Assembly (NCBI GenBank): GCA_037142615.1
Contig: JBAXAI010000005.1
Coordinates: forward strand, 1 to 64,000
Source of the DNA: Spirochaetales bacterium
Lineage (GTDB): Bacteria; Spirochaetota; Spirochaetia; JABEVK01
Direction: 5' to 3'
Length of the DNA stretch: 64,000 nt
Part shown: one piece after another, positions 1-11,863 of the stretch
How the letters are laid out: each line of letters opens with the position of its first letter
How positions within the stretch are numbered: the stretch's first letter is position 1
The notes under the pieces: model-generated
Database searches by the model: none
Seen by the model: the letters and a program-made list of their open reading frames with translations, nothing else
Told to the model about the DNA's origin: nothing
Translations under genes and position numbers: made by a program

Positions 1-761
1 GACAGCGCCTCCAACCAAGCAGCAAGCCCGGCGTGCTTCAGGTGCACCGAGAGTTTGTTCCGGTCACCGGCAAACTCCCACCACCCCAGGCGCTCGCCTT
101 CAACGAAGGTTGGTAGTAGCAAGTTTCGGGGTTTCAGCAAAGCGCGGTACACCGGCGAGCCGTCGAAATCGCCGCTTCCCTGCCCCAAGGCCTGGAGCGC
201 GTAGAGGAACCAGCCGAGGGTGCGCACGTCGATGGCCGGGCTGCGGATCTCTTTTTCGGCGCGACCCTCGAGGTAGCCGTTGTCGCGCAGCGAGGTGAGC
301 AGGTTGCGCCCGTAACGGGCCACGCCGCCACGCGAAATTGTGGTGGGAAGCTGGGTGGCCAATGCGTCGTCAAAGGTAGCTTTGGGCACCTCGAGCCGAC
401 CGTCGCTGAACCGGGCGGCCAGGAAGTCGCTGGCGGCCCAGCGGTAGTACTTGTCGGCCAGCACCATGTGAAAGTGGTTCAACTGGGGGAACTGCGCGCT
501 GTCCATCTTGCCCAGAAACGCGCGGAGCAGGAGCAGGTAGCCGGGAGCACGGTCGAAGCGTCGTGCGAGGTGTCGCGTGGTACGACCGCACACGCCCATC
601 GAGGCGTTGCCGTACCAGCGGTTCTGAAAAGCACGTTCGACGTTCACCTCGGACTTCAGTGCGGGGTCATAAGCCAACAAAAACTCCCTGGCCTCGGGCA
701 GGTTGGCGCCGATCTTGTGCAGGTCCGACGTATGCGCCGTCAGGTAGGCTTCAGTCGGCAT
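1..761 (-). CDS. brxA: BrxA-like (DUF1819-like) BREX protein, 3' end runs off the window
   Basis: Absent from the ORF track because no stop lies in the window. Manual translation from ATG at 761, which overlaps the brxE end: MPTEAYLTAHTSDLHKIGANLPEAREFLLAY...ERAFQNRWYGNAS...LNHFHMVLADKYYRWAASDFL...NLLTSLRDNGYLEG...GWWEF...WLEAL, open for ~253 codons. It resembles the BrxA proteins that follow BrxE in BREX type 6. Confidence 0.7.
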   Translation of the reverse strand, partial: MPTEAYLTAHTSDLHKIGANLPEAREFLLAYDPALKSEVNVERAFQNRWYGNASMGVCGRTTRHLARRFDRAPGYLLLLRAFLGKMDSAQFPQLNHFHMVLADKYYRWAASDFLAARFSDGRLEVPKATFDDALATQLPTTISRGGVARYGRNLLTSLRDNGYLEGRAEKEIRSPAIDVRTLGWFLYALQALGQGSGDFDGSPVYRALLKPRNLLLPTFVEGERLGWWEFAGDRNKLSVHLKHAGLAAWLEAL

Positions 762-1311
762 GAGCGCTCCGGTAGTAGGGCATGGCGTAGCGCCCCTTGT
801 CGGCAAGGGTGAAGGTGGCGGCCAGCGCGTGCATGGCCACCTTCGGCGAGGCTGTGGGCGAGAGGGTAACCAACCGCCCGAAGCTGGTGCCCTGAAACTC
901 GGCCTTGGTGGAACTCTCCAGGCGAGCCAGCAACTCGGGGGCTTTGAAATCCTTGGTCGGATCGAGAACGGCACGGAGGGTTTCGGGCAAGTCGTCGGGG
1001 TAAGTCTTGAAGTGGCGGTAACGCTCGGCAAGGGCCGTCCGAAGGCTGGGTTCGGGCAAAAAGAGGCTGCAAAGGGCCTCGTCGCGTGCCGCCGCCAACA
1101 GGGGTTCTTCTTTGAGGCGTGCCGCCAGCAGGATGCCCTCACCTGCCGCCAAAGGTGCGAACGCCGCCCCGACGAGCCGAGTCAGAAAGTCGTAACCGCC
1201 GTGCTGGTAGGCGATGTCGGTGTTCCACCAGTTCATCAGCTCCTTCTCGCCCAGGCGGGCTACCGTGAGTTGAAGCAGCAGGATCTCGTCGAGGTCAGCG
1301 TGGTCGAACAT
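751..1311 (-). CDS. brxE: BrxE family protein (BREX type 6-like)
   Basis: 186 aa. N-terminal LDEILLLQLTVARLGE..MNWWNTD....GG.DFL.RL and C-terminal Y.MPYYR match the BrxE pattern as I recall it. First gene of an operon continuing leftwards. Confidence 0.75.
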   Translation of the reverse strand: MFDHADLDEILLLQLTVARLGEKELMNWWNTDIAYQHGGYDFLTRLVGAAFAPLAAGEGILLAARLKEEPLLAAARDEALCSLFLPEPSLRTALAERYRHFKTYPDDLPETLRAVLDPTKDFKAPELLARLESSTKAEFQGTSFGRLVTLSPTASPKVAMHALAATFTLADKGRYAMPYYRSAHAD

Positions 1312-1410
1312 GAGACCACTATAGTACAGGAATCAGCGGGAGTGTGCGACTTGTGGCGATAGGTTGGACCTCGCCTTGTTGCCGTTCCGAACCAGTGCTA
1401 CTTTGGAAAG

Positions 1411-3462
1411 GTGAGCGATCCTACGCACGGGGATGCCAAGTATTCCGAAGTCCCACACTGGCCAACCGTTGGGACGCTCCTCAGGATATACTTCGACACC
1501 GCAGGACTCGGCGAAAAGGATCAGGACTTCACGGGGACTTCGCGAAAGTACGTCCGTGGTGTCGCGGACGAGAACGACGAACGAGTCGAGTTCTACCTCG
1601 CCGAGTTCCAATTGATCGCTGATCGACTCGAAAACCTCACGGAGGGCTGCTCACGACATTGGCTGTCGGGGGCTGCCTTCGCGAACGTGGTTTCCTCGTA
1701 TCAGTGGTTCGTCTCCACGATTCCTTGCCCACCGGTCACCCAACAAAGCGCCGTCCGCGAGTTCGTCCGGGTTTTCGCCGCCTTTTCCATGGAGTACTAC
1801 TTCAAATGGCTCCGCGACGACCATGGGCGAACACGGCTGGAGTCGGACGACCTTTGGTTTCTCCCGGGAGCAAAGGACGCGAAGAACTCGCTGCCGAAGC
1901 TTATGGCGAGGGTCTGTCAGCACCTCAGGCTTGAAACCTGCACGGCCCACAGCTTGGCCGCCTGCCTTTTCGCGGGCGACGATTTTGAGAGCGTCAATTC
2001 CCGCGAAAAGGCTGAACGGACCTTTCAAAACTGGTTCAACGGCGCGGTTGTGCCTCACTGGTCCCGTTTCGAAGCATTGATCCTCGCAAACATCAAAAAA
2101 CTTGATGAAGCCGCCGCAAAGGCCGCTACTCAGGATTTGCTCTCCTTCTTTTGGGGGTGCGAATTGGCACTGCTCCTGGAAAAAGAGAACCTGACTGACG
2201 AGTTGCAGGAACTCCATAGCCAAATCTGGGCCATGTCATCCCTGATGCTGGAGCGCCCCCAATACTCGCCCCCCTTGCTGCCGTCGCTTCTGGCAGAGGG
2301 GAGTCCCGAACTGGTTGAATGGGAACGGTCCTTGTTCCACAAGTATACGGACCCAGCGATGGCGCGGATTCTCCAGGGGTTGGAACTGCCAGACGACCTT
2401 GCCGTGCTGGTGGAACTCGCGGACGCTGGCTGGTACCGCTTTGGCAGGGTATGGCACCAAACTGTCACGCGTGCCTTTGACATGGCCCGCGACCTTGACG
2501 ATGCCCGGCAGCGGCCTCTCCACAAACAACTGTTGGTCTTGGGCAACCTCGGCACCAAGTTCAAGAGTTCGGAAAACTGGAGGGAGATCCAGAGAAATCC
2601 CCTTCCGTACATCGTTTCCTCGGACGATGTGACGTGGAGCCGGGATCTCGGCCGTGCTCACAGGAATGAACTTCGGAAAGTAGGGCTTTACCTTCGCACT
2701 CAACTTCAGGTCGCCGTCTCAAGGCGGGACGCCGAGATCGTCGGGCGTCTTCTGGATCACGGTGCGGATCCTGCCGTGAGGGTAATCGACGGGGGCGACA
2801 ACGCGACGGCCCTGTTGATGGCATTTCGAGTCCTCGGACAAGACGCCTTGGCACGAAGGTCCATGGTCAAATTGATTCTCGAGGCGCTGGACAAACGCTC
2901 ACCCGAGGTTGTGCAAGCCTCAGTCAACGCCAGGACGACGACCACGAACAGCTCGGCATTTAGCCAGGCCATCGAAACCGGCGACTCGTGGGGCGTTGTT
3001 GAGCTTCTCAACCGGGGTGCCGACGTCGATTGTCCTGTCGGCGGTGATGAAGACTCTCCGCTCTACCTGGTTATGAACTACTTCCTACTTGCGTTCCGCG
3101 CTGAACACCAACCTGAGTTCTTCACCGACCTCCACCTTGCCAGCCGGGACTCGGTGAATCTGACTCGCCTCAACGCCCCCCTGCCGGGCTCACTCCTGAT
3201 GCGGATTATCGAGGCCGAAATGCCCGGTGGATCGGAACGGGCAAGTCGGCTACTTGCCGAACAGTTGACCAAACAATCGAGCCGCGAAGAACGCCTGGCC
3301 CTTGTCCGAACGTTGCTTTCACGCGGTGCCGACCCCAACCGGCTCCAGCGCCTGCAAAAACGGTATCCCCTCGACTTTGCCCTCGAGATCGACAGGGAAG
3401 CTGGAACGGATCTGTCCAGCTTGATCCGCGATGCTGGGGGCTATCGGGTGAGCCTCCACTAG
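1411..3462 (+). CDS. Large protein with unknown N-terminus, possible central HTH and C-terminal ankyrin repeats
   Basis: 683 aa. Ankyrin-type segments: LQVAVSRRDAEIVGRLLDHGADP, SAFSQAIETGDSWGVVELLNRGADVD, SPLYLV, LVRTLLSRGADPN..YPLDFA. An XRE-like helix ERTFQNWFNGAVVP lies at about aa 210. Confidence 0.75.
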   Translation: MSDPTHGDAKYSEVPHWPTVGTLLRIYFDTAGLGEKDQDFTGTSRKYVRGVADENDERVEFYLAEFQLIADRLENLTEGCSRHWLSGAAFANVVSSYQWFVSTIPCPPVTQQSAVREFVRVFAAFSMEYYFKWLRDDHGRTRLESDDLWFLPGAKDAKNSLPKLMARVCQHLRLETCTAHSLAACLFAGDDFESVNSREKAERTFQNWFNGAVVPHWSRFEALILANIKKLDEAAAKAATQDLLSFFWGCELALLLEKENLTDELQELHSQIWAMSSLMLERPQYSPPLLPSLLAEGSPELVEWERSLFHKYTDPAMARILQGLELPDDLAVLVELADAGWYRFGRVWHQTVTRAFDMARDLDDARQRPLHKQLLVLGNLGTKFKSSENWREIQRNPLPYIVSSDDVTWSRDLGRAHRNELRKVGLYLRTQLQVAVSRRDAEIVGRLLDHGADPAVRVIDGGDNATALLMAFRVLGQDALARRSMVKLILEALDKRSPEVVQASVNARTTTTNSSAFSQAIETGDSWGVVELLNRGADVDCPVGGDEDSPLYLVMNYFLLAFRAEHQPEFFTDLHLASRDSVNLTRLNAPLPGSLLMRIIEAEMPGGSERASRLLAEQLTKQSSREERLALVRTLLSRGADPNRLQRLQKRYPLDFALEIDREAGTDLSSLIRDAGGYRVSLH

Positions 3463-3529
3463 ATGTCCGACTTCTTTCTCCTGACAGCTCCGACTGCCGC
3501 TACTAGATTCAGTCCACAAGGAGATTCCA

Positions 3530-3688
3530 ATGAGCAGATCGGCGAACGATGATCGAAGCGATTCCATGAACCCCAACAACGAGGCGTACTGGGACTCGCT
3601 CGACAACCACTCAGACCAGTTGAACCCGAACAACGACGAGTATCGGGGTGATGACACCGACGCAAGGGAAGAAAGCAACAACAGCTGA
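3530..3688 (+). CDS. 52-aa Asn/Asp-rich microprotein with two NPNN repeats
   Basis: AAGGAG at 3518-3523, ATG 3530, TGA ending 3688. Sequence: MSRSANDDRSDSMNPNNEAYWDSLDNHSDQLNPNNDEYRGDDTDAREESNNS. Below the ORF-track size cutoff and followed by a hairpin. Confidence 0.75.
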   Translation: MSRSANDDRSDSMNPNNEAYWDSLDNHSDQLNPNNDEYRGDDTDAREESNNS

Positions 3689-3701
3689 GGGTCAAAACAC
3701 T

Positions 3702-3736
3702 GGGTGGGGCGAGTTGCATCCCGGGCCGCCCCACCC
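3702..3736. terminator. GC-rich hairpin between convergent genes (probable terminator)
   Basis: GGGTGGGGCG...CGCCCCACCC 10-bp stem between the microprotein stop and the helicase stop; no U-tract. Confidence 0.5.
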
Positions 3737-3737
3737 G

Positions 3738-6700
3738 TCACCCCCGCACTTCCGCCCACAGCACTGCCTTGATGCGCAATTCCAGGGGCTCACGCGACAC
3801 CAACTCCTTGGCGAGCAATTCCCATTCGCGGTCGGTCAGCGTGATGCCTTCCAGGGCCTTCTTGACCTCGGGGCTCCCCCACGACAGGAAGCGTCGTTTG
3901 GTCCACGACGCACGCAGGGCCGCCCAGTGCGGCTCGGAAATCTCCAGCCAGCGACGGGCCAGGTTGGCCTGATGGTAGCGGGCCGCTTCGGTGCTCTGCT
4001 CGGCGAACAGGGTTCCGTTGGTGTCGACCGAGTCGGCCCACGCCCGGAACGCAGTCCGGTAGTCACGAGGGATCTTGTCGGCGCGGTCCCAAGCCCGCAG
4101 GAGCACGGCCAGAAGCCGCAGCGCACGGCGCTTTTTGTGTGGCAGAAGCTGCAGCTCGTGGCTTTCGACCTCGCGGCAAACCTGCAAAATGCGCTGAGCG
4201 CTGGGGAGTTTGGGAGTCGCCTCGTCCTGCGGTGGAAGGAACCGGCGAAGGTGAGCCACGATCTCGCCCAGGTCGATGGTCACCCTGCCCTTGTGCCACA
4301 AAGTCCATCGGGGAGCCTTGATGCCTTCGTTGGTGACTAGCAGCGCCCATGGCTCGGACGAGGCCACGGTGGACCACACGGTGTTGGCCCTGAGGTTGGC
4401 GACTCTGTCGTAGACCTCGCGGGGCACCAGCGCGTCCCGACCCCAGAACAAACCTTTGAGGTCCTGGAATGAGTCGTTGATGGCCAGGGGACTCGAGGTC
4501 TGGTTCGCGTTCCTGGCGTTCTCTTCCCACAGGCGGATGGCCGTCGAACCCGTTACGGCCGGCATCTGCAACCGCTCGGTCAGCGTGGTCGGAATGTCGA
4601 TGTTGGAACCCAGAAGCATGTTCACCGAGTCGGCTGTCTGGAAAAAGCGTTGGTCGGTTTTGAGGGCGAACGACTTGTGATCCTCGGGCCACCAGACCTC
4701 GATGGTGTCGAAGGGCGAGTTCATCCGGTCGATGCGGCCAATGCGCTGCTCTGCCAACCGCATCACACTGGGCATGTCGAGCAGAACCAGACATTGGGCA
4801 CCCTGCAGGTTGACGCCTTCGGCCATCGCGTCCGAACACAGCCCGATCCAGCCCACCTCTTGGCTGTCGAGCCCAAACAGTTCGCGCGCCCGGCGCTGTT
4901 CGTCCTTGCGGCCTCCGGTCACCAGAAGCACCTGCGGGCCGGAACCGGGCTCGTTCAACCGCTTCTGGAAGTACTCCAGACTGATGACCCGGCTGTCGAA
5001 AGCCAAAATACGGTCTTTCTCGCTGGCCAACCGCCGGAGCAACTGGAGCTTGGCGTCGTCGCGAGCGCTGGAAATCTGGAGGCACTTTTCGGCAATGGCG
5101 CGGTAGGTGGCCACCTCGGCGCCGAGTACCCTCGCCCGCTCGTCGGGGTCGGTCATCCAGCTTGGCAAGTCAATGGCGAGCTTGTGGACGGGTAGCGCAA
5201 AGCCGTTCTTGGTCAGGTTGCCGGCGAGGTTTCCCGTGGCTTTGTCGTCCACCTTCAAGCCAAAATGCTGGCAGGCTTTCTGCGTGCCGTGGATGTGCTC
5301 GAGCAGGGCAGCACGGCTGGAACGGAGCATGGCGCGCACGTTCCACGCGGCCAGGGCGGTGGCTCCCTTGATCCGGTTGTCGAGGAATTTGCGCTGTTTG
5401 TCGGGGGTGCTCAGGTCCTCCGGGCTGACTGTCAGCTTCTTCAGGTAGACCAGTCCGCGCAGTTGCCACGACAGGGCTTCGATTTCGGCGGCCAGCGCGA
5501 TGTCCTTTTCCGTCTCGTTCAGCTCGTAGGTCTGGCTGAGGGTTTTGGGGTACCGGCAGTAGACCTTCTGGTCCACTCCCTTGACCGTTTTCGTGCGTGT
5601 GTACCCATCCGGGTTACGCGCGATGAAGGCGTTGAGGTCGCCCTTGGTTCGTCGGATGGTGAAAAGAGACAACTGCTGGCGGATCTCGGTGAGGTCCTGC
5701 TGACTCTGCGGTCGCCGATGCATCCCCCAGTCGTCGAACACCTTCAGGGCAGCGTCAGACAGGTTGTCGGGGTCCATCAGGTTGAGCACGCGAAACAGGT
5801 CTTCCACCTTGCGGTTGATGGGTGTGGCGGTGAACAGCACCGCGTGGTCGGCGCCGTGCCCGAGCAAACTGGTCGAGCGGTTGGACTTTTGATTGAGGTA
5901 GTTGTGAGCCTCATCGAGAAACAATACCCGGCAGCGCTTCAGGTTGTCGGCCATCGAGACGCCTTCGCTGGCCCTGGCGTGGCTCAGCATGCCCTGCGAA
6001 ATCACGTCGGGCTGGTTGGCATCGAGCTCCTCGAACTCCTTTTCCCAGCTAGGTTTGACTTGTGGCGGGGTGATGATAAGCGTACGCATCCGATCGCTTT
6101 GGCCCAAGGCGACGAGGCGCAGCAGCAGCAGCAGGTGGAGCCCGGCCCCCAAGCGAGTCTTGCCCGAGCCGGTGGGGTCGGCGACCAACAGACTGTCGCC
6201 AAAGGTATCGAGCAGGTAAAACGCCTGGCTGAGCGCCTGCTTCTGACTCTCCCACAAAGCCAGGTCCTGAAACCTGCGGGAGAGCTCGGGCACCTGCTTG
6301 AGCCACTCGCCCTCGAGCAACAGGGCGCCGGCGCTGGCGAGAACCTCTTGCCAGGTGGTGGGTCGAAGCAGTTGTAGCAGCAAGTCGCGGATCACGTCGT
6401 TGGCGGGAACACCCAGGTCCCAGTACGCTTCGGCAATCGACTGGATCTCTTTGTACTCGTGGGTGCCGACAAGTCGCCTGGCGTTTGCCTCCTTGAGGAG
6501 CGTCATGCCGCTGTGCGAGAAGTTACTGGACCCCAAGAGCGCCGCGCCGGGACCCACCACGATTTTGGCGTGCAGGCTATCCAGAAGTCGGAACTGGACT
6601 TCTCCCCGGTCGATTTTGCCCACGAGGTCCTGAACCGCACTGCCCGAGAGGATGGAAAACCCCTGTTCCAACCACCACTGTTTCATCTCGTCAGAAAGCC

Positions 6701-6950
6701 TTGCAGGAGCTCCGTTGGCCGACTGACGATGGACCAAGGGCTCCTGGCCGATCAAGATGCGCGGCTGGCGGGCCTTGGTCTGCATCAAGGTCCGGGACAG
6801 AAACTCAAGCGACGAAAACCCGGTGACGACCAGCGTTGGGCCGACGCGCAACTCTGCCTCAACCCACGGGAGGACTTTCCCTTCCGGGGAGTTGACAGGG
6901 TAGCGTTCTGCCAGAGGAAAGGGGCTGTGGTCGAAGGCGAACTCGGGCAT
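3738..6950 (-). CDS. PLD (HKD-type) nuclease domain fused to SF2/SNF2-like helicase
   Basis: LHAKIVVG...GSSNFSHSG..EAN (PLD motif); ADPTGSGKT (Walker A); DEAHN; FTATP; MAEGVNLQ; EQRIGRIDR (motif VI); GGAGG RBS. Confidence 0.85.
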   Translation of the reverse strand: MPEFAFDHSPFPLAERYPVNSPEGKVLPWVEAELRVGPTLVVTGFSSLEFLSRTLMQTKARQPRILIGQEPLVHRQSANGAPARLSDEMKQWWLEQGFSILSGSAVQDLVGKIDRGEVQFRLLDSLHAKIVVGPGAALLGSSNFSHSGMTLLKEANARRLVGTHEYKEIQSIAEAYWDLGVPANDVIRDLLLQLLRPTTWQEVLASAGALLLEGEWLKQVPELSRRFQDLALWESQKQALSQAFYLLDTFGDSLLVADPTGSGKTRLGAGLHLLLLLRLVALGQSDRMRTLIITPPQVKPSWEKEFEELDANQPDVISQGMLSHARASEGVSMADNLKRCRVLFLDEAHNYLNQKSNRSTSLLGHGADHAVLFTATPINRKVEDLFRVLNLMDPDNLSDAALKVFDDWGMHRRPQSQQDLTEIRQQLSLFTIRRTKGDLNAFIARNPDGYTRTKTVKGVDQKVYCRYPKTLSQTYELNETEKDIALAAEIEALSWQLRGLVYLKKLTVSPEDLSTPDKQRKFLDNRIKGATALAAWNVRAMLRSSRAALLEHIHGTQKACQHFGLKVDDKATGNLAGNLTKNGFALPVHKLAIDLPSWMTDPDERARVLGAEVATYRAIAEKCLQISSARDDAKLQLLRRLASEKDRILAFDSRVISLEYFQKRLNEPGSGPQVLLVTGGRKDEQRRARELFGLDSQEVGWIGLCSDAMAEGVNLQGAQCLVLLDMPSVMRLAEQRIGRIDRMNSPFDTIEVWWPEDHKSFALKTDQRFFQTADSVNMLLGSNIDIPTTLTERLQMPAVTGSTAIRLWEENARNANQTSSPLAINDSFQDLKGLFWGRDALVPREVYDRVANLRANTVWSTVASSEPWALLVTNEGIKAPRWTLWHKGRVTIDLGEIVAHLRRFLPPQDEATPKLPSAQRILQVCREVESHELQLLPHKKRRALRLLAVLLRAWDRADKIPRDYRTAFRAWADSVDTNGTLFAEQSTEAARYHQANLARRWLEISEPHWAALRASWTKRRFLSWGSPEVKKALEGITLTDREWELLAKELVSREPLELRIKAVLWAEVRG

Positions 6951-7165
6951 GTTGGCCTCCTCGGCGGGTCAGAAGTCAAGCCTAGCGCTACGGAAACGGC
7001 GCAAAGTCCCGGCTCAACAGCATCAGGGCCGAGAGAACGCGTGGCCACCAATCGCCAAAGTACCAGTTGCTTGCCGCGAGGACAAGGAGAAGGCCGCTGG
7101 GCGGCTCCTGCGTTTGTCTGGAATTTTTCGTCCACCGGTGCGATGCTCTGAAAAAAGGAGTTCCG

Positions 7166-8140
7166 ATGCGCCTATTCGCCTTCACTCTTCTGTTGCTGTT
7201 CCCTGTGGGAGTTGCCTTTGCCCAGTCCCCCCAAGCTGCCTTTAGCTACGACGACCGAGCGGGAACCACCGGCCATACCTTGGTCGTCGAGGGCAAGAGC
7301 TTTGGTCCCTACAAAGATGTGCTGAGCATGACTTACTCGTCGCACGGCAAAACGGCCATCTTCTTGGTCAACAAACGCGACAAAACCTACGTGCTCGCGC
7401 AAGGCAAAGAAACGGGCCCCTTTGCGGCCGGCTTTTCCGAAGAGAGTGTCTGGGTCGCCGACGACAGCAAGTTCTGGGCGGTGAGTTTGGTCGCCTACCC
7501 GGAGCAGACCGAGGGGGAAGACACGACCGGTTCCACGCAAGCTCAACTCCTGGTCAATGGCAAAACCTACGGCCCCTACCTGAGCGTGGCGGCCCTCGAC
7601 TTCGCCGACTCGGGCGGCTCGTGGATTGCCTCGGTGCAGGTGGCCGAAGACCAGTACACGGTGATGCTCAATGGCAAGCCCCAAGGCACCTTTCAGTCGG
7701 TTTCCAACCTCTGGATGAGCCCCGACGGCAAGCTCTGGGGCTTCGCCGGGGACAAAGACGACCAGACGCTGGTGTTCGTCAACCAAGACCAAGTTTTTCC
7801 GTCCGTCCAGGAGTACAACGTGTACGGCCTTGACTTCCGGGCACCCCATTGGGCCTATTCGGTCCGCACGAGCGAGGAAGAGGAGACCGTGGTGGTGGAC
7901 GGCAAGACCCTTCCCAGCTTCCTGCATTTCGAGGGCTTTCTGCTCACCGCTTCGGGGCGCCATTGGGGTTTCGGGGCGCAGAAGCTCACAGAAACCGGCG
8001 ACTACCCGGTGGTTGTGATCGACGGGCAAGAGTTCATTGGTGAGGGTCTTTCCGTGAACCGGGCTGGCAGTCAGGAGTTCTTCACCTGGACGGTACGCGA
8101 CGGCAATAAGACAACCGTGCAGGTGCTCAGCTTCCAATAA
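7166..8140 (+). CDS. Secreted repeat protein, probable beta-propeller
   Basis: AAGGAG RBS before ATG 7166; signal peptide MRLFAFTLLLLFPVGVAFA|Q; about 7 repeats of V-x-(N/D/E)GK-x-x-GP(Y/F). Confidence 0.7.
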   Translation: MRLFAFTLLLLFPVGVAFAQSPQAAFSYDDRAGTTGHTLVVEGKSFGPYKDVLSMTYSSHGKTAIFLVNKRDKTYVLAQGKETGPFAAGFSEESVWVADDSKFWAVSLVAYPEQTEGEDTTGSTQAQLLVNGKTYGPYLSVAALDFADSGGSWIASVQVAEDQYTVMLNGKPQGTFQSVSNLWMSPDGKLWGFAGDKDDQTLVFVNQDQVFPSVQEYNVYGLDFRAPHWAYSVRTSEEEETVVVDGKTLPSFLHFEGFLLTASGRHWGFGAQKLTETGDYPVVVIDGQEFIGEGLSVNRAGSQEFFTWTVRDGNKTTVQVLSFQ

Positions 8141-8191
8141 TGCGCTATGATGCATAATTACCTTGCCAATTCATGCATCATAGCGCATAGT
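8140..8191 (+). promoter_or_regulatory. 16-bp perfect inverted repeat overlapping the promoter of the mobile mystery operon
   Basis: ATGCGCTATGATGCAT (8140-8155) / ATGCATCATAGCGCAT (8173-8188); TTGCCA(8163)-17 nt-CATAGT(8186)-6 nt-ATG. Confidence 0.65.
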
Positions 8192-8197
8192 AACTCT

Positions 8198-8659
8198 ATG
8201 AACCCCCGCTTTGTAAGCCTGCAACGCCAACAACTCGACGCCGTGCTCGACAATTGGAGAGCGGCCCGGCTGCCGACTCCGCCGGGTTCAGGGTGGATCA
8301 AAGCCATCCGCGAAGCCCTGGGGATGCCGGCCTCGTTCCTGGCCCGACGCCTGGGGGTCGTCCCCTCGTCGGTGCTGCGCATGGAAGACTCGGAAGCCGA
8401 CGACTCGATCACGCTGGCAACCCTCAAGCGGGCGGCGCACGCGCTGGGCTGCGATGTGCAGTACGCGCTGGTGCCCCGCATGGCTTTGCGCGAGATCGTC
8501 GAGCACCGGGCTCATTCCGTCGCCCAAGCGCAGGTGGCCGACGTGGCGCACACGATGGCACTCGAAGCCCAAAACACCTCCGCCAAGGCGCGGAACGTGC
8601 TGGTCCAGGAGTTGGAGGCCGAGCTGACGCGTGGGGCCAAACGGGGGTTGTGGAAATGA
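8198..8659 (+). CDS. Mobile mystery protein A (XRE-type HTH)
   Basis: PPGSGWIKAIREALGM..LARRLGV....V.RME.SEA...ITLATLKRAAHALGC..YALVP, TMALEAQ and C-terminal LWK are characteristic; ATG 8198 preferred as start. Confidence 0.9.
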   Translation: MNPRFVSLQRQQLDAVLDNWRAARLPTPPGSGWIKAIREALGMPASFLARRLGVVPSSVLRMEDSEADDSITLATLKRAAHALGCDVQYALVPRMALREIVEHRAHSVAQAQVADVAHTMALEAQNTSAKARNVLVQELEAELTRGAKRGLWK

Positions 8660-9234
8660 ACCTCGAGGACTTGCCGGGAGCCACCCACCTCAACGCCGAC
8701 GAGATCATCGGCCTGAAACCTTTGCACCTCACGACCCAGCACCAGCTCGACGAATGGGAACAGCTGAACATCCTCGAAGGAGAAACCTGGGCCAAGCGGT
8801 ACCACGGGGATTTGCTCGACCAGACCTTTTTGCGCCGGTTGCACGAAAAGATGTTCGGTGAAACGTGGTCGTGGGCCGGCCACTTCCGCCTGTCGGACAA
8901 GAACATCGGCGTGCCTTGGGCGCAGATTCCCATGAAGCTCAAGGACCTCGCCGACGACGTGCGCTACCAAATCGACAATCGCACGTTCCCGAACGACGAG
9001 ATCGCGGCGCGCTTTCACCACCGGTTGGTGTTCATCCATCCTTTTCCCAACGGGAATGGCCGCTGGGCCCGGTTTGCCACCGACCTGCTGATCCAGCGGT
9101 TGGGTCACTGCCGTTTTTCGTGGGGCCGCGACAGTTTGATCGAAGACACCGAAACCCGTTCGCGGTATCTGGCAGCCTTGCGAGCGGCCGATGGTCACCA
9201 CCTGGAACTGCTGCTCGAGTTCGTACGCAGTTGA
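8656..9234 (+). CDS. Mobile mystery protein B (Fic domain)
   Basis: ATGA overlap with gene A; PGAT.L..DE..GL, EQLNI, and the Fic motif HPFPNGNGRWAR. Confidence 0.9.
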   Translation: MNLEDLPGATHLNADEIIGLKPLHLTTQHQLDEWEQLNILEGETWAKRYHGDLLDQTFLRRLHEKMFGETWSWAGHFRLSDKNIGVPWAQIPMKLKDLADDVRYQIDNRTFPNDEIAARFHHRLVFIHPFPNGNGRWARFATDLLIQRLGHCRFSWGRDSLIEDTETRSRYLAALRAADGHHLELLLEFVRS

Positions 9235-10466
9235 AGCCTCCGGTGGCCGTGGTAGGGGCTGGTCCCGCTGGTTTGATGGCTGCCGAAGCGGCGGCCGAGG
9301 CGGGTGCACTGGTCACCGTCTACGACGCGATGCCTTCAGCCGGACGCAAGTTGCTTATCGCGGGCTCCAGCGGTCTCAACCTGACCCACGACGAGCCGCT
9401 GGAACAATTCCTGGACCACTATGGCGAGGCGAGAGCCGCGCTGGAACCCTTTTTGCGCGAGTTTGGGCCCCAAACGCTGCGAAAGTGGGCCGCCGACTTG
9501 GGCATTGCCACGTTTGTGGGCACGTCGGGCCGGGTATTCCCCGAAGGAAAGCTGGCGGCACCGCTGCTGCACGCGTGGTTGGCGAGGCTGGCGCGACAAG
9601 GGGTCGAGTTTCGCTGGAACCACCGCTGGAGCGGCTGGGATAGCGCGGGCTTGTTGGCCTTTGTGACAGCCGAAGGCCTGCTGGCCGTGCAAGCCGAGGC
9701 CTGCGTGTTGGCTCTCGGAGGTGCCAGCTGGCCACAAACCGGTTCCACCGGCGAGTGGACGTCGCTGTTGCGCCCTCGTGGGGTCGAAGTAGCGCCGTTT
9801 CGGCCCGCCAACTGCGGGTTCCTGGTGAACTGGAGCGCGGTGTTCCGCGACAAGTATGCCGGCCAACCGTTGAAGTCGGTGGCTTTGGTCCACGGTGGCA
9901 CCCGAAAGCCCGGCGAACTGCTGATCACCGAGGAGGGCCTGCAGGGTGGCCTGGTGTACGCCTTCGCCGCCGCGTTTCGTGACGAGCTCGAGGCTCGTGG
10001 AAGCGCCACCTTGGTGCTCGACTTGGCCCCCGACGTGGCTCAGGGCGAGCTCGAGCGGCGCTGGACGAGGCCACCGGCGGGTCGTTCGGTCGCGACTCAC
10101 CTCGAAAAGGCTCTGGGAGTCCGCGGGGTCAAAGCCGGTTTGCTGCGCGAGGCAAGCTGGCCAACGCTGCCCACTTCGGCGGGGGCACTCGCAGCGCTGG
10201 TCAAGAACTGCCCCGTGGTGTTGGTCGCCCCTCGCCCGCTCGACGAGGCGATCAGCAGCGCCGGCGGGGTGGCGTGGTCGCAGCTCGACGGCCTGGCATT
10301 GCGCGGCCTTCCGGGAATGCATTGCGCTGGCGAAATGCTCGACTGGGAGGCCCCGACCGGAGGGTACCTGCTCACCGCCTGCTGGGCAACCGGTCGGGCG
10401 GCCGGGCAACAAGCGGCGCAAAAGGCCTTGCTGTCCGCAGGGCCCGCACGCTACCCTGCCGTATGA
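9231..10466 (+). CDS. HI0933/BaiN-family flavoprotein (NAD(P)/FAD-dependent oxidoreductase)
   Basis: TTG start overlapping the Fic stop; GAGPAGLMAAE, GRKLLIAGSSGLNLT, GTSGRVFP, AISSAGGV, GEMLDWEAPTGGYLLTAC. Confidence 0.9.
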   Translation: MKPPVAVVGAGPAGLMAAEAAAEAGALVTVYDAMPSAGRKLLIAGSSGLNLTHDEPLEQFLDHYGEARAALEPFLREFGPQTLRKWAADLGIATFVGTSGRVFPEGKLAAPLLHAWLARLARQGVEFRWNHRWSGWDSAGLLAFVTAEGLLAVQAEACVLALGGASWPQTGSTGEWTSLLRPRGVEVAPFRPANCGFLVNWSAVFRDKYAGQPLKSVALVHGGTRKPGELLITEEGLQGGLVYAFAAAFRDELEARGSATLVLDLAPDVAQGELERRWTRPPAGRSVATHLEKALGVRGVKAGLLREASWPTLPTSAGALAALVKNCPVVLVAPRPLDEAISSAGGVAWSQLDGLALRGLPGMHCAGEMLDWEAPTGGYLLTACWATGRAAGQQAAQKALLSAGPARYPAV

Positions 10467-11863
10467 CCGAACCCTCGCGCCGCGCTACCCCTCTCATGGT
10501 GCTGATCATCACCACCGCTGGGGCCTTTGTTTCGTCGTTCAGCGCCTCCTCGGTGAATGTGGCCCTTCCTCTCATTGGCTTGGAGTACCACCTGGCCGCC
10601 GTCACCCTCAACTGGGTTGTCACGGCTTTCGTGCTCACCTCGGCGGTCCTCATCATGCCCATGGGCCGCCTGGGCGATCTTCACGGCCGCCAGCGCGTGT
10701 TTTCGTGGGGCTTGGGAGTGATGACGCTCGGTAGCCTGTCGGCAGCGTTGGCTCCTACTCCGGAACTGCTCTTGGCCGCCCGGGCCCTCAGCGGCGTCGG
10801 CATGGCCATGGCCACGGGCACCATCACCGCTGTTTTGGTGGCCGCTTACCCTCCCGAACAACGCGGGCGAATTCTGGGCATCAACGTCGCGATGGTCTAC
10901 CTGGGGATTTCGGTGGGCCCCGCCCTCGGTGGGGTTCTTACACAACTGTGGGGCTGGCGCGCCCTGTTTGGTCTGCACGCGGCGCTGAGCCTCACGGTCT
11001 TGGGCCTCGTGGTCGGCTGGCTGCATGGCAACGACAAGCAACACCAGCCTGGCAAGTTCGACCTCGTGGGTTCACTGGTGTACGCGGGTGGTTTGGCCCT
11101 CCTGCTGGTAGGGGTTTCGGACCTGCCTCAGCTGCTGGGAATCGGCCTGCTCGTCGCGGGGTTTGCCCTGCTGGCGGTGTTCTGGTGGTACGAGTCGAAA
11201 ACCGCCCATCCTGTCCTCCCCGTCACGCTGCTGACCAAGAACCGCATTTTCGCGTTTTCCAACCTGGCCGCCGTGTTCAGCTACAGCGCGACGTTTTCGG
11301 TCGCTTTTTTCCTCAGCCTGTACCTCGAGGTGGTGCGGGGCTTTTCGCCGGCCCAGACGGGCCTGGTGCTCGTCACCCAATCGCTGGTCCAGGCCGCCTT
11401 TTCGCCGCTGACCGGCAGGCTTTCCGACAAATTGTCGCCACGCTGGCTGGCTTCGGGTGGAATGGCCCTGACGGCTCTGGGGTTGGTGGGTTTGGCTTTC
11501 CTTGATGCTGTGACCCCGCTGCCGTTTCTGGTGGGGGCGCTGGTGTTGATCGGGCTGGGGTTTGCGCTGTTCTCGTCGCCCAATACCAACGCCGTGATGG
11601 GGTCGGTCGAACGTCGCGACCTGGGTCTGGCCTCCGCAACCGTGGCAACCATGCGGGTGGTGGGGCAAATGGCCTCGATGGGCTTGGCCCTCGTCTTGCT
11701 GTCGCTGATTCTGGGCAAAGCCGCCATCAGCGCCGAAACCTCAGGGGCCTTCGTTGTGGCTCAGCGCTGGGGGTTCGGCCTTTCTGCCCTGCTATGCACG
11801 CTGGGCATCGCCGCGTCGCTGGCGCGAGGGTCGCGCAAGGCCGAAGAACCGGGCCAAGCCTAG
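10463..11863 (+). CDS. MFS transporter (DHA2-like, 14 TM)
   Basis: ATGA overlap; GRLGDLHGRQR motif A; FDLVG; many TM helices. Confidence 0.9.
   Translation: MTEPSRRATPLMVLIITTAGAFVSSFSASSVNVALPLIGLEYHLAAVTLNWVVTAFVLTSAVLIMPMGRLGDLHGRQRVFSWGLGVMTLGSLSAALAPTPELLLAARALSGVGMAMATGTITAVLVAAYPPEQRGRILGINVAMVYLGISVGPALGGVLTQLWGWRALFGLHAALSLTVLGLVVGWLHGNDKQHQPGKFDLVGSLVYAGGLALLLVGVSDLPQLLGIGLLVAGFALLAVFWWYESKTAHPVLPVTLLTKNRIFAFSNLAAVFSYSATFSVAFFLSLYLEVVRGFSPAQTGLVLVTQSLVQAAFSPLTGRLSDKLSPRWLASGGMALTALGLVGLAFLDAVTPLPFLVGALVLIGLGFALFSSPNTNAVMGSVERRDLGLASATVATMRVVGQMASMGLALVLLSLILGKAAISAETSGAFVVAQRWGFGLSALLCTLGIAASLARGSRKAEEPGQA

Follow-up and report, generated by a model that had tools for sequence, protein, structure and literature searches.

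The 683-aa ankyrin protein and the 52-aa acidic microprotein encoded next to a BREX type 6 operon in a Spirochaetales bacterium are tentatively interpreted as an accessory (conflict) module of two loosely linked genes, of a type so far undescribed, a reading to which we assign a probability of about 0.45. Both genes lie near the start of the window, the 64,000-nucleotide stretch of one contig analysed here. The large protein consists of an N-terminal domain (N-domain), a linker and an ankyrin domain, and the microprotein belongs to a family with a repeated NPNN motif.

Arrangement of the locus

At the left edge of the window, brxA (positions 3–1142, minus strand; PADLOC BrxA 1.7e-17) is cut by the contig start, followed by brxE of BREX type 6 (751–1311, minus strand), which matches NF033448 BREX_6_BrxE at 2.9e-36 with 125 bits (cut-off 80) and PADLOC BrxE at 9.4e-19. 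The gene for the 683-aa protein (1411–3462, plus strand) runs divergently from brxE, and because brxE occupies the minus strand up to 1311 and the 683-aa ORF starts at 1411, the gap between them (1312–1410) measures 99 bp. The microprotein gene (3530–3688, plus strand) begins 67 bp past the TAG at 3460–3462. The microprotein and helicase genes converge on a G+C-rich hairpin (3702–3736) with perfect 10-bp arms, 3702–3711 pairing with 3727–3736 at 10/10 bp. The helicase gene (3738–6950, minus strand) encodes a 1070-aa PLD-like/SNF2 protein with SNF2-rel_dom (1.1e-15) and Helicase_C (2.1e-9) domains; its residues 112–155 give weak PLD-type matches to DpdK/DrmC, and its DrmD/DpdE-like character stays far under the NCBIfam cut-offs (75.5 against 500; 71.3 against 610). 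The BREX-6 operon goes on to contig C3, whose end overlaps the start of the present contig, C5, by 55 bp, and which carries brxB, brxC, pglX, pglZ, brxD and a DEAD helicase. The layout proposed in the sequence-only reading, with the ankyrin ORF divergent from brxE, the microprotein gene downstream, a hairpin after it and the pair placed between BREX and a nuclease-helicase inside a defence island, is thereby borne out.

The BREX-6 gene set is complete elsewhere in the operon, with neither the 683-aa nor the 52-aa gene among its members, and neither protein matches a Brx/Pgl model in PADLOC or NCBIfam; judged by gene content and model searches, the module is outside BREX proper. The organism is present in freshwater metagenomes from four studies. 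Reads of four runs from four studies display the same gene arrangement at ~100% identity with no joints, and since the arrangement is identical in all four, it does not inform on the mobility of the cassette. None of the 24 runs holding the sequence is listed as an RNA run.

The microprotein gene possesses signals of its own. A Shine-Dalgarno sequence, AAGGAG (3518–3523, plus strand), precedes its ATG by 6 nt, and further upstream lies a sigma-70-like, promoter-like site (3481–3509, plus strand; CTGACA-17-TAGATT, 9/12), a call made by consensus match only, which is the sole such site in 1200–3900 against a shuffle mean of 0.3. The hairpin, with an energy of -28.8 kcal/mol, is only modestly unusual in stability (z -1.9; equalled by 10/200 shuffles). 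A TTTT follows its stem on the minus strand only, and the structure therefore resembles the terminator of the helicase gene more. No Rfam match occurs in 1–9300.

The ankyrin protein and its N-domain

The 683-aa ORF starts with GTG; no further in-frame ATG, GTG or TTG occurs before conservation sets in, and the alignments with homologues begin at residue ~1–18. The N-domain, residues ~1–291 (1411–2283, plus strand), is all-helical in the model and carries the motifs FPTxG, WFLP and WxxG..P. The ankyrin-repeat domain, residues ~394–683 (2590–3459, plus strand), is identified by Pfam, structure alignment and Foldseek alike. Pfam Ank_4 reaches 31.6 bits (cut-off 22.7) and Ank 27.6 bits (cut-off 21.1) across residues 432–660. 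In the model used, with a pLDDT of 61.6 overall and 72–90 in most repeat blocks, residues 394–683 align with the ankyrin repeats of Bcl-3 over 197 residues (VIA-align; Z 15.3, rmsd 3.0), and the domain also aligns with IkB-alpha (Z 15.1) and RNase L (Z 12.6); a single-sequence AlphaFold2 prediction was unusable at a pLDDT of 36. A Foldseek comparison retrieves ankyrin/DARPin chains. The stacked ankyrin fold therefore makes the C-terminal ~290 residues probably a protein- or ligand-binding surface.

The remainder of the protein is far less familiar. Residues 1–~400 match nothing in Pfam, NCBIfam, PADLOC or PHROG, as had been expected from the letters; the PDB sequence search with the N-domain alignment returned nothing meaningful, and ESM Atlas hits to the N-domain score at most 0.83 with a TM of at most 0.28. 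The ankyrin family numbers five members, the 683-aa protein and four others. The N-terminal 420 aa have only four relatives among 1.84 billion representative proteins, and one homologue comes from a metagenome-assembled genome (MAG). Ank Pfam models are matched by four of the five, the fifth being a 322-aa N-domain-only protein. A word-index search with region 1–420 found none of these relatives among 8000 candidates listed, although the collection includes three of them (P0002–P0004; P0003 is a protein of a Spirochaetota MAG). The matches listed for the family profile were limited to a self fragment and one ankyrin protein without relation to the family. A weak N-terminal match in genome G104 (E 4e-4) was not seen again with the N-domain profile. 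By tblastn, the N-domain has no match in the phage and plasmid collections. The sole model touched in PADLOC-DB 2.0 is PDC-M72A (E 0.0011, 16.3 bits), in keeping with the earlier view that the layout corresponds to no named system.

With a pI of 5.5, no 19-residue Kyte-Doolittle window above 1.6 and no enzymatic or effector domain found, the 683-aa protein is a soluble, apparently non-enzymatic scaffold. A transmembrane or pore-forming N-domain was considered and ruled out by a maximum KD19 of 1.2–1.6. That no signal peptide was noticed and no hydrophobic segment occurs also speaks against an ankyrin protein directed at eukaryotes or otherwise engaged in host interaction, unrelated to phage conflict, as do the organism's presence in freshwater and the defence islands around both family members of known context. 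Such a role, which we hold to be very improbable, would nevertheless fit a weak NCBIfam match to the Legionella effector AnkC (18.2 bits, cut-off 450) and the abundance of ankyrin proteins in some spirochaetes, the ankyrin part being matched in 44/401 genomes of the phylum.

The sequence-only reading had also raised an XRE-like helix and control of BREX from the shared gap, that is, a DNA-binding, ligand-sensing regulator acting on the 99 bp. The gene is indeed divergent from brxE, and residues ~205–225, W..G...P....[FL]..[IL], resemble the end of XRE-type HTH domains. However, none of the five family members matches an HTH Pfam model at E<=1 (the 683-aa protein none at E<=0.01), no inverted repeat of at least 8 bp occurs in 1250–1450, and the gap at 1312–1410 holds no operator-like repeat or sigma-70-like site. 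The MAG homologue, moreover, does not adjoin BREX, and the N-domain relatives described below adjoin NPNN genes rather than BREX. Neither suggestion is supported, and a regulatory function of this type is regarded as quite improbable.

A near-invariant microprotein family

The microprotein has a pI of 4.05 and a charge of about -10, and it contains two copies of the repeat D-[DN]-[RH]-S-D-x-[ML]-NPNN-[DE]-x-Y. It fits the definition of the NPNN family, whose members have a 33-aa core holding the NPNN repeat twice, an acidic tail and a length of 43–60 aa. At E<=0.01 this family comprises 566 clusters (90% identity) from many phyla, the 565 others matching the microprotein with E-values of 2e-16 and weaker, and NPNN charges range from -7 to -13. 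Among 22 aligned sequences 20 columns are invariant, and the microprotein is 67–85% identical to the other 21. Across 76 loci the core is 88% identical, and the identity at codon positions 1/2/3 is 0.84/0.92/0.40, a pattern indicating that the NPNN microprotein is a real, translated gene under extreme purifying selection.

Despite this breadth, the microprotein belongs to no Pfam, NCBIfam, PADLOC or PHROG family, the PDB sequence search with the NPNN alignment yields nothing meaningful, and ESM Atlas offers unnamed clusters only (best 0.92). Against phage and plasmid collections tblastn gave no match, with a low-complexity filter that may hide matches; viral contigs contain four NPNN loci, weak to good, and no locus of the ankyrin family or of the 909-aa and 541-aa families introduced below. 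Full-text searches of the literature listed no paper on the NPNN motif or family. Reading the repeat as an EF-hand was tried by eye against the EF-hand consensus, and the fit was inconsistent.

Remote N-domain relatives next to NPNN genes

An HMM of residues 1–260 of the ankyrin family was compared with 828 ORFs of at least 100 aa from NPNN loci and with their reversed copies. The top match outside the family (L039, 15.4 bits) is the N-terminal fragment of a 909-aa ankyrin family, followed by three members of a 541-aa family (L084, L085 and L087; 9.6, 8.4 and 8.4 bits) and a single fragment (L072, 8.4 bits), the best reversed decoy scoring 7.7 bits. Among 18,556 further six-frame ORFs from the genome that contains the window, none exceeded 5.9 bits. 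In 16,460 composition-matched shuffles 15.4 bits was never reached, 9.6 bits once and 8.4 bits three times; from these rates ~0.15 chance matches are expected in 823 ORFs, against five observed in three families. All five directly adjoin an NPNN gene, a position held by 88 of the 828 ORFs.

The alignments point the same way at modest strength. FPTxG, WFLP and WxxG line up colinearly within the first ~290 residues of the ankyrin, 909-aa and 541-aa families, and hhalign of the ankyrin-family alignment with the 541-aa family covers 211 colinear columns (E 0.0019, probability 14%), a second comparison giving E 3e-4 and a probability of 40%. With the 909-aa alignment hhalign joins the ankyrin part only, and between the N-domain alignment A7 and alignment A8 it spans 32 columns; in the reverse direction, HMMs built from the 909-aa and 541-aa families reach 6.2–8.2 bits, within the shuffle range (up to 12.1). 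The homology statistics connecting the N-domain to the partner families are modest, and the 541-aa link to the superfamily is the weaker one, its 9.6 bits being equalled by one of the 16,460 shuffles. The 909-aa family combines an N-domain with C-terminal ankyrin repeats (Ank_2 1.8e-23), as in the 683-aa protein, and keeps its NPNN neighbour across members 56–96% identical. By these profile and motif comparisons, remotely related N-domains are shown to adjoin NPNN genes in bacteria not related to one another and in both orientations, with two lineages ending in ankyrin repeats. What the ankyrin-family, 909-aa and 541-aa partners have in common is the N-domain rather than the ankyrin domain.

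Surroundings of NPNN genes

An N-domain neighbour is present at 8/74 NPNN loci and a separate 375-aa family at 18/74, many loci having neither. The 375-aa family compares with the N-domain only through one 25-column motif (hhalign E 0.2); HMM iteration stayed at 18 members, and a PDB sequence search gave nothing meaningful. The surroundings are mostly mobile, toxin-antitoxin or restriction-rich. At 16 of 26 long loci clear mobile-element, toxin-antitoxin or restriction-type domains occur within 6 kb, by our reading and with no base-rate control; three loci are ambiguous and seven show housekeeping types only. The neighbours include integrases, a Mob_Pre relaxase, KfrA/KfrB, a replicase, transposases and a prophage Ltp-type lipoprotein, together with the toxin-antitoxin genes HipA, RES, Fic, HicB, AbiEi and PIN. 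WYL regulators occur both near NPNN genes and near the MAG homologue. The NPNN gene also appears on ~4-kb Mob_Pre contigs without a large partner, and the microprotein is therefore apparently able to act alone.

These surroundings invite another explanation, in which the two are independent island genes and NPNN is autonomous mobile-element cargo that landed beside an unrelated ankyrin gene; the peptide might, for instance, be a small polyanion that inhibits some DNA-binding or restriction-type protein, or serve in metal or stress responses. The far greater number of NPNN clusters (566, against five ankyrin-family members), the microprotein's own promoter-like site and Shine-Dalgarno sequence, its low pI and the family's negative charge, the company of integrases, relaxase, replicase and transposases, the 16/26 count and an unlinked NPNN gene in the MAG all suit this explanation. 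It leaves aside, however, the three further families whose related N-domains directly adjoin NPNN genes, and the co-occurrence of both genes in the MAG against a background of none in ~400 genomes; nor do NPNN proteins show a sequence relation to curated anti-restriction families or a match in the phage and plasmid collections. The explanation as a whole, and with it the exemplary functions, is considered rather unlikely.

The wealth of toxin-antitoxin genes around NPNN and the adjacency of a small acidic protein to a large one also recall a toxin-antitoxin-like or abortive-infection pair, in which one partner is toxic and the other neutralises it. Gene order and orientation vary, however, from tandem in the window to divergent by 283–441 bp elsewhere and unlinked in the MAG; no toxin domain was found, and NPNN occurs without a partner as well. 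Unlike co-evolving toxin-antitoxin pairs, the peptide is nearly invariant and its partner has diverged to 20–25% identity. Such a pair seems improbable.

Co-occurrence in a second spirochaete

The spirochaete MAG (G401) was found via the ankyrin family alone, yet it has an NPNN gene (E 9.4e-27). Its ankyrin homologue, which is not beside BREX, is accompanied by type I RM, Fic, Hypoth_Ymh, an AAA_21/PHP-associated-domain ATPase and Schlafen AlbA_2, and the 18 kb around it contain no NPNN motif. The NPNN gene lies on a separate contig in an excisionase/NERD/DUF3846 region; the genome being a MAG, binning could have joined contigs of two organisms. Among ~400 sampled genomes of the phylum, the acidic NPNN gene is confined to the window's genome (G000) and G401, the two carriers of the ankyrin family. 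NPNN matches in the phylum samples number 3/401 and 3/381 genomes, two others being a basic variant (E 6e-9 and 6e-7). The usual 375-aa partner is absent from both G000 and G401 (0/4 genomes examined). Both searches of the phylum with the ankyrin family drew on largely the same genomes and are therefore not independent, and the order sample contributed 1/391, which is G401 itself, adding none.

Both ankyrin-family members of known context thus sit in defence islands, one at BREX-6 and one in the G401 island; as the family has only five members, the enrichment for defence genes rests on two loci of one phylum. Adjacency to NPNN is not kept throughout the family, being missing in G401. Of the two-gene system, the linkage to NPNN recurs at the superfamily level and as genome co-occurrence; a tight operon is made less likely by the separate promoter-like site, by the much greater abundance of NPNN genes, by their usually different neighbours and by the separate contig in the MAG.

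Proposed action of the module

In the loosely linked module favoured here, the near-invariant microprotein would work with the N-domain, the part that all these partners hold in common, and the fast-diverging C-terminal repeats, ankyrin in this case, would bind a variable protein, most plausibly one encoded by a phage or mobile element. Sensing of an invader would thereby be coupled, through the pair, to the highly conserved cellular target that keeps the peptide from changing; in another version, the large protein may restrain the peptide. The role could be defence, defence control or counter-defence. A predicted complex from the 683-aa and microprotein alignments scored 0.00 (mark 0.32), run without controls, and counts as evidence neither way.

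A more specific version may be imagined as a guard and its bait. The NPNN peptide would mimic a universally conserved cellular surface that phage or plasmid proteins attack, for instance nucleic acid or the acidic tail of a protein, and fast-evolving guards (the N-domain/ankyrin proteins or the 375-aa family) would switch on or release neighbouring immunity, for example BREX or the nuclease-helicase. Such a scheme, speculative and in itself doubtful, would account for a frozen peptide facing diverging partners, for the dispensability of co-transcription and for the siting in defence islands.

The NPNN family is large, strongly selected and without a family model, and its partner domain is equally unannotated. 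Linked to defence and mobile islands, a 52-aa peptide with one partner offers a cheap experimental handle, and the loosely linked module may reveal a new level of conflict between hosts and their phages or plasmids, or a new BREX accessory. Should the pairing be spurious, the microprotein alone would be a well-defined unknown.

Comparison with known systems

With ankyrin sensor and inhibitor proteins (IkB/Bcl-3, the RNase L sensor, DARPin-like proteins) the 683-aa protein shares the stacked ankyrin fold of its C-terminal ~290 residues. It differs in that it has no kinase/RNase or other output domain, its N-terminal 390 residues fall in no recognised family, and a common fold proves no function. 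Component A of PDC-M72, a PADLOC candidate, likewise has ankyrin-like repeats, but the match spans ankyrin residues 432–541 only, too weak and partial for membership, and the N-domain and microprotein are unmatched.

Ocr, ArdA and phi29 p56 are small acidic DNA-mimic anti-restriction proteins. The microprotein is similarly small, strongly acidic, found on mobile elements and placed beside RM or BREX genes, but it has no sequence relation to the curated families or solved structures; it is shorter than Ocr and ArdA, repeats its NPNN motif and is encoded on a chromosome next to defence genes. Type II toxin-antitoxin systems resemble the pair in having two genes, one small acidic partner and the same kind of neighbourhood, and differ from its variable order and orientation, its occasional lack of linkage, its lack of a toxin domain and its invariant peptide facing a hypervariable partner. 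WYL-domain (BrxR-type) proteins regulate BREX and other islands; like them, the 683-aa protein is encoded divergently from a BREX operon, but it contains neither a WYL domain, by Pfam, nor an HTH domain.

Genomic setting of the ankyrin-microprotein pair

The 683-aa ankyrin protein (1411-3462, +) starts with GTG, and the 52-aa NPNN microprotein (3530-3688, +) is preceded by the Shine-Dalgarno sequence AAGGAG. The two are separated by 67 bp, a hairpin follows at 3702-3736, and a gap of 99 bp (1312-1410) lies between the ankyrin gene and brxE; these positions hold exactly as the sequence-only reading placed them. Four runs of freshwater metagenomes, each from a different study, have contigs with the identical arrangement at ~100% identity, and no alternative joints are seen in those contigs. 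Both genes are real, and constraint on the peptide is extreme.

The window is the first 64 kb of contig C5 in a draft genome of 4.27 Mb with 60.8% G+C. Its first 55 bases (1-55) are the same as the end of contig C3, so the two contigs join and the BREX operon is split by the assembly alone. At the left edge lie brxA (3-1142, -) and brxE (751-1311, -; NF033448, 125 bits against a cut-off of 80), and the operon continues on C3 with brxB, brxC, pglX, pglZ, brxD and a DEAD-box helicase. The pglX-pglZ interval of this BREX-6 operon harbours four nested defence-type genes (L004, G000:C3:173100-193027, at 5160-11779, minus strand): a GmrSD-like Orf5/HEC-06 protein (616 aa), a PD-DExK PDC-S02 protein (359 aa), and two proteins of 383 and 543 aa matching SIR2/APAZ-type Argonaute-associated and pAgo models (E 1e-11 to 1e-13).

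To the right, domain matches identify a 1070-aa PLD-like/SNF2 helicase (3738-6950, -). It resembles DrmD and DpdE only at scores far under the cut-offs curated for them, and its flanks show no DISARM or Dpd partner genes; it could be a nuclease-helicase that acts alone. A 357-aa protein (7067-8140) follows, whose N-terminus is hydrophobic and whose sole family resemblance is a weak TmcD-like stretch. Then comes a 170-aa HTH_3 protein overlapping a Fic/DOC protein (8147-9234), likely a Fic toxin-antitoxin-type pair that closes the island. Because BREX flanks the pair on the left, the helicase and Fic pair flank it on the right, and housekeeping genes begin only from ~9.3 kb onward, the proposed location within a defence island is borne out.

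The microprotein family

The microprotein is very acidic (pI 4.05, charge about -10) and carries D-[DN]-[RH]-S-D-x-[ML]-NPNN-[DE]-x-Y twice before ending in an acidic tail; no other ORF of the genome has two NPNN-type motifs. No curated family in Pfam, NCBIfam, PADLOC or PHROGs covers it. A search of 5.8 billion clustered proteins returns 571 candidates, 566 of them microprotein clusters at E<=0.01. Among the 120 clusters listed, lengths span 43-90 aa and identity 69-94% over the aligned part, and the named ones are all 'hypothetical' (Enterovibrio, Shewanella, Pseudoalteromonas, Chromatiales, Thioglobus, Dadabacteria, Polyangia). Twenty columns are invariant across 22 aligned members.

Over 76 loci, the 33-residue core retains 88% protein identity, with nucleotide identity to the window of 0.84 at the first, 0.92 at the second and 0.40 at the third codon position. 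This pattern is one of old divergence under strong protein-level selection, rather than of recent transfer or of an RNA element.

The acidic type is patchily distributed, occurring in two of ~400 sampled genomes of the phylum: the window's own (G000) and a Treponemataceae MAG (G401). In two other genomes of the phylum the gene product is a basic variant that has a lysine tail and just one ..DNHANQLNPNN.LY.. repeat (L022, about 1440-1600, +; L023, about 700-870, -), which suggests a wider NPNN superfamily.

The large protein and its relatives

Pfam recognises only ankyrin repeats in the 683-aa protein (residues 432-660). Its AlphaFold2 model, built on a five-sequence alignment, is mediocre (pLDDT 61.6, pTM 0.47); the modelled residues ~394-683 superpose on the solved ankyrin domains of Bcl-3 (Z 15.3) and IkB-alpha (Z 15.1), and Foldseek concurs. 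This ankyrin domain is itself ordinary. A host-interaction ankyrin protein is the least probable reading of the gene, its surroundings being those of a defence island. Residues 1-390 are all-helical in the model, soluble by hydropathy, and without a match among Pfam, NCBIfam, PADLOC and PHROGs models, PDB sequences and the ESM Atlas. The sequence-only reading had seen a possible XRE-like helix here and offered regulation of BREX from the shared divergent gap as one role. That helix corresponds to the stretch W..G...P....[FL]..[IL] around residue 208, and HTH models match none of five family members even at E<=1; despite the divergent layout with brxE, a BREX regulator is very improbable.

Members of the ankyrin family are very few. 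Searched exhaustively by phmmer with residues 1-420, a set of 1.84 billion representative proteins gives four matches: a fragment almost identical to the query protein, P0002 (322 aa, N-domain only), P0003 (733 aa, in a cluster that includes a protein of a 'Spirochaetota bacterium') and P0004 (694 aa). A scan of species-representative genomes adds the homologue of the Treponemataceae MAG (L020). This family of five shows 22-25% identity to the window's protein, and the N-domain plus ankyrin layout is common to all four full-length members. Among 401 phylum genomes, the full-length profile finds the N-terminal part in G000 only, and the N-domain profile finds it in G401 only, both there and among 391 order genomes. 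The phylum samples overlap, the same contigs recurring in both under different handles; since identical contigs are returned from both, G000 and G401 share one phylum, probably Spirochaetota.

Neighbourhoods of NPNN genes

Of 309 confirmed relatives, the best 80 metagenome loci were used to read neighbourhoods; a motif search placed the NPNN gene in 74 (L083, L088, L090, L095, L102 and L107 were left out). Most have neighbours other than the ankyrin family. The commonest belongs to a ~375-aa family without annotation, whose gene mostly lies 120-270 bp upstream in divergent orientation; the family has the motif RWR.G...LTI..FK and no Pfam or PDB relative. It occurs in 18/74 loci, or 17/43 where at least 1300 bp of upstream sequence is available (within L028-L098; for example L045:6778-7917 (-) and L061:6785-7918 (-)), and is absent from G000 and G401 (0/4 genomes searched). 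Two further families recur: a 909-aa ankyrin protein, annotated as a Methylotenera protein (L043, L046; fragments in L039, L040), and a 541-aa family (L084, L085, L087). Small WG-repeat proteins lie downstream in 8 loci; WG_beta_rep proteins of 93-110 aa stand directly 3' of the NPNN gene at L043:8278-8559, L032:702-980, L051:5526-5855 and L106:732-1061.

The surroundings include mobile-DNA genes (integrases, serine recombinases, IS transposases, KfrA/KfrB, a replicase, and Mob_Pre relaxase on ~4-kb contigs), conflict-type genes (HipA, RES, Fic, HicB, AbiEi, PIN, type I R-M subunits), a CBASS-type cyclase, NERD and other nucleases. In a descriptive reading of the long loci within 6 kb, clear mobile, TA or restriction-type domains occur in 16/26, with 3 ambiguous and 7 housekeeping only. 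On two contigs of ~4 kb (L091, L092) the NPNN gene is convergent to a Mob_Pre relaxase gene; these may be small mobilisable plasmids that carry NPNN as cargo. On a provirus-type IMG/VR contig (L024:6001-6755), a gene for an Ltp-type surface lipoprotein (Pfam Lipoprotein_Ltp, 1.1e-33) lies 276 bp downstream of the NPNN gene; this is a family of prophage superinfection-exclusion proteins. NPNN/N-domain loci vary in orientation and spacing, and their context is defence or mobile DNA.

N-domain relatives beside NPNN genes

A profile of ankyrin-family residues 1-260 was run against 828 NPNN-locus ORFs (>=100 aa) and their reversed copies as decoys. The best non-family match is L039 of the 909-aa family (15.4 bits), followed by the 541-aa family (L084 9.6, L085 8.4, L087 8.4) and L072 (8.4). 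The best decoy (7.7 bits) ranks below all five, and all five are genes directly beside NPNN, a class of 88 among the 828 ORFs. Among 18,556 other ORFs from the window's genome, no score is above 5.9 bits. In 16,460 composition-matched shuffles, 0 reach 15.4, 1 reaches 9.6 and 3 reach 8.4 bits; by this measure ~0.15 matches would arise by chance, and the five observed come from three families.

When profiles are aligned to each other, the 541-aa family matches colinearly along 211 columns (E 0.0019, probability 14%; E 3e-4 and 40% in another run), and the FPTxG, WFLP and WxxG motifs align across all four lineages. Proteins of the 909-aa family have the full architecture too, starting with the N-domain and ending in ankyrin repeats. 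By hhalign against the 909-aa alignment, only the ankyrin part is detected; the three-sequence N-domain alignment yields a match of only 32 columns. Reciprocal 909-aa and 541-aa profiles, made from near-identical sequences, score 6.2-8.2 bits, inside the shuffle range. Taken together, the link to the 909-aa family is solid and that to the 541-aa family probable. The large partner is apparently non-enzymatic, and its N-domain recurs beside NPNN genes in distant bacteria.

Linkage and proposed function

The linkage of the two genes suggested earlier stands in part. G401, found via the ankyrin family alone, carries an NPNN gene (E 9.4e-27) on another contig, which is identical to metagenome locus L044 with its excisionase-like, NERD and DUF3846 genes; a second, decayed copy with an in-frame TAG lies at about 6950-7033 (-) of L111 (G401:C93). 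Chance co-occurrence is unlikely because no other carrier exists in the ~400 sampled genomes, though a MAG binning error, or a tendency of both genes to follow island-rich genomes, could also account for it. This co-occurrence, the lack of the usual 375-aa partner in G000 and G401, and the N-domain relatives beside NPNN genes speak for linkage. Adjacency does not extend to G401, where the 18 kb surrounding the ankyrin homologue contain no NPNN motif; along with the mostly different partners elsewhere, the window's microprotein gene has its own promoter-like site (3481-3509), the sole one in 1200-3900. These points speak against a tight unit. Independent neighbours, with NPNN as autonomous mobile-element cargo, are a less likely but serious competing reading.

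That the 683-aa and 52-aa proteins form a functional two-gene conflict module is given a probability of roughly 45%, a claim drawn from comparative genomics with modest statistics. In such a module, the constant NPNN peptide would work together with the constant N-domain, and the variable C-terminal repeats (ankyrin in two lineages) would recognise a variable target, for which a phage protein, or one from another mobile element, is the most plausible candidate. Such a module may serve defence, tune it or counter it. Because the peptide is frozen while its partners diverge fast, something very conserved in cells may constrain it. The same disparity argues against a co-evolving toxin-antitoxin pair, and a TA/Abi-like reading of these two adjacent genes is improbable.

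In conclusion, the putative module resembles no named system, as first proposed. Among the results of full-text literature searches, nothing relevant appears on the NPNN motif or on ankyrin repeats in bacterial immunity. With no counterpart in Pfam, NCBIfam, PADLOC, PHROGs, PDB sequences or the ESM Atlas, the N-domain, the NPNN family and their pairing lie outside the known kinds.
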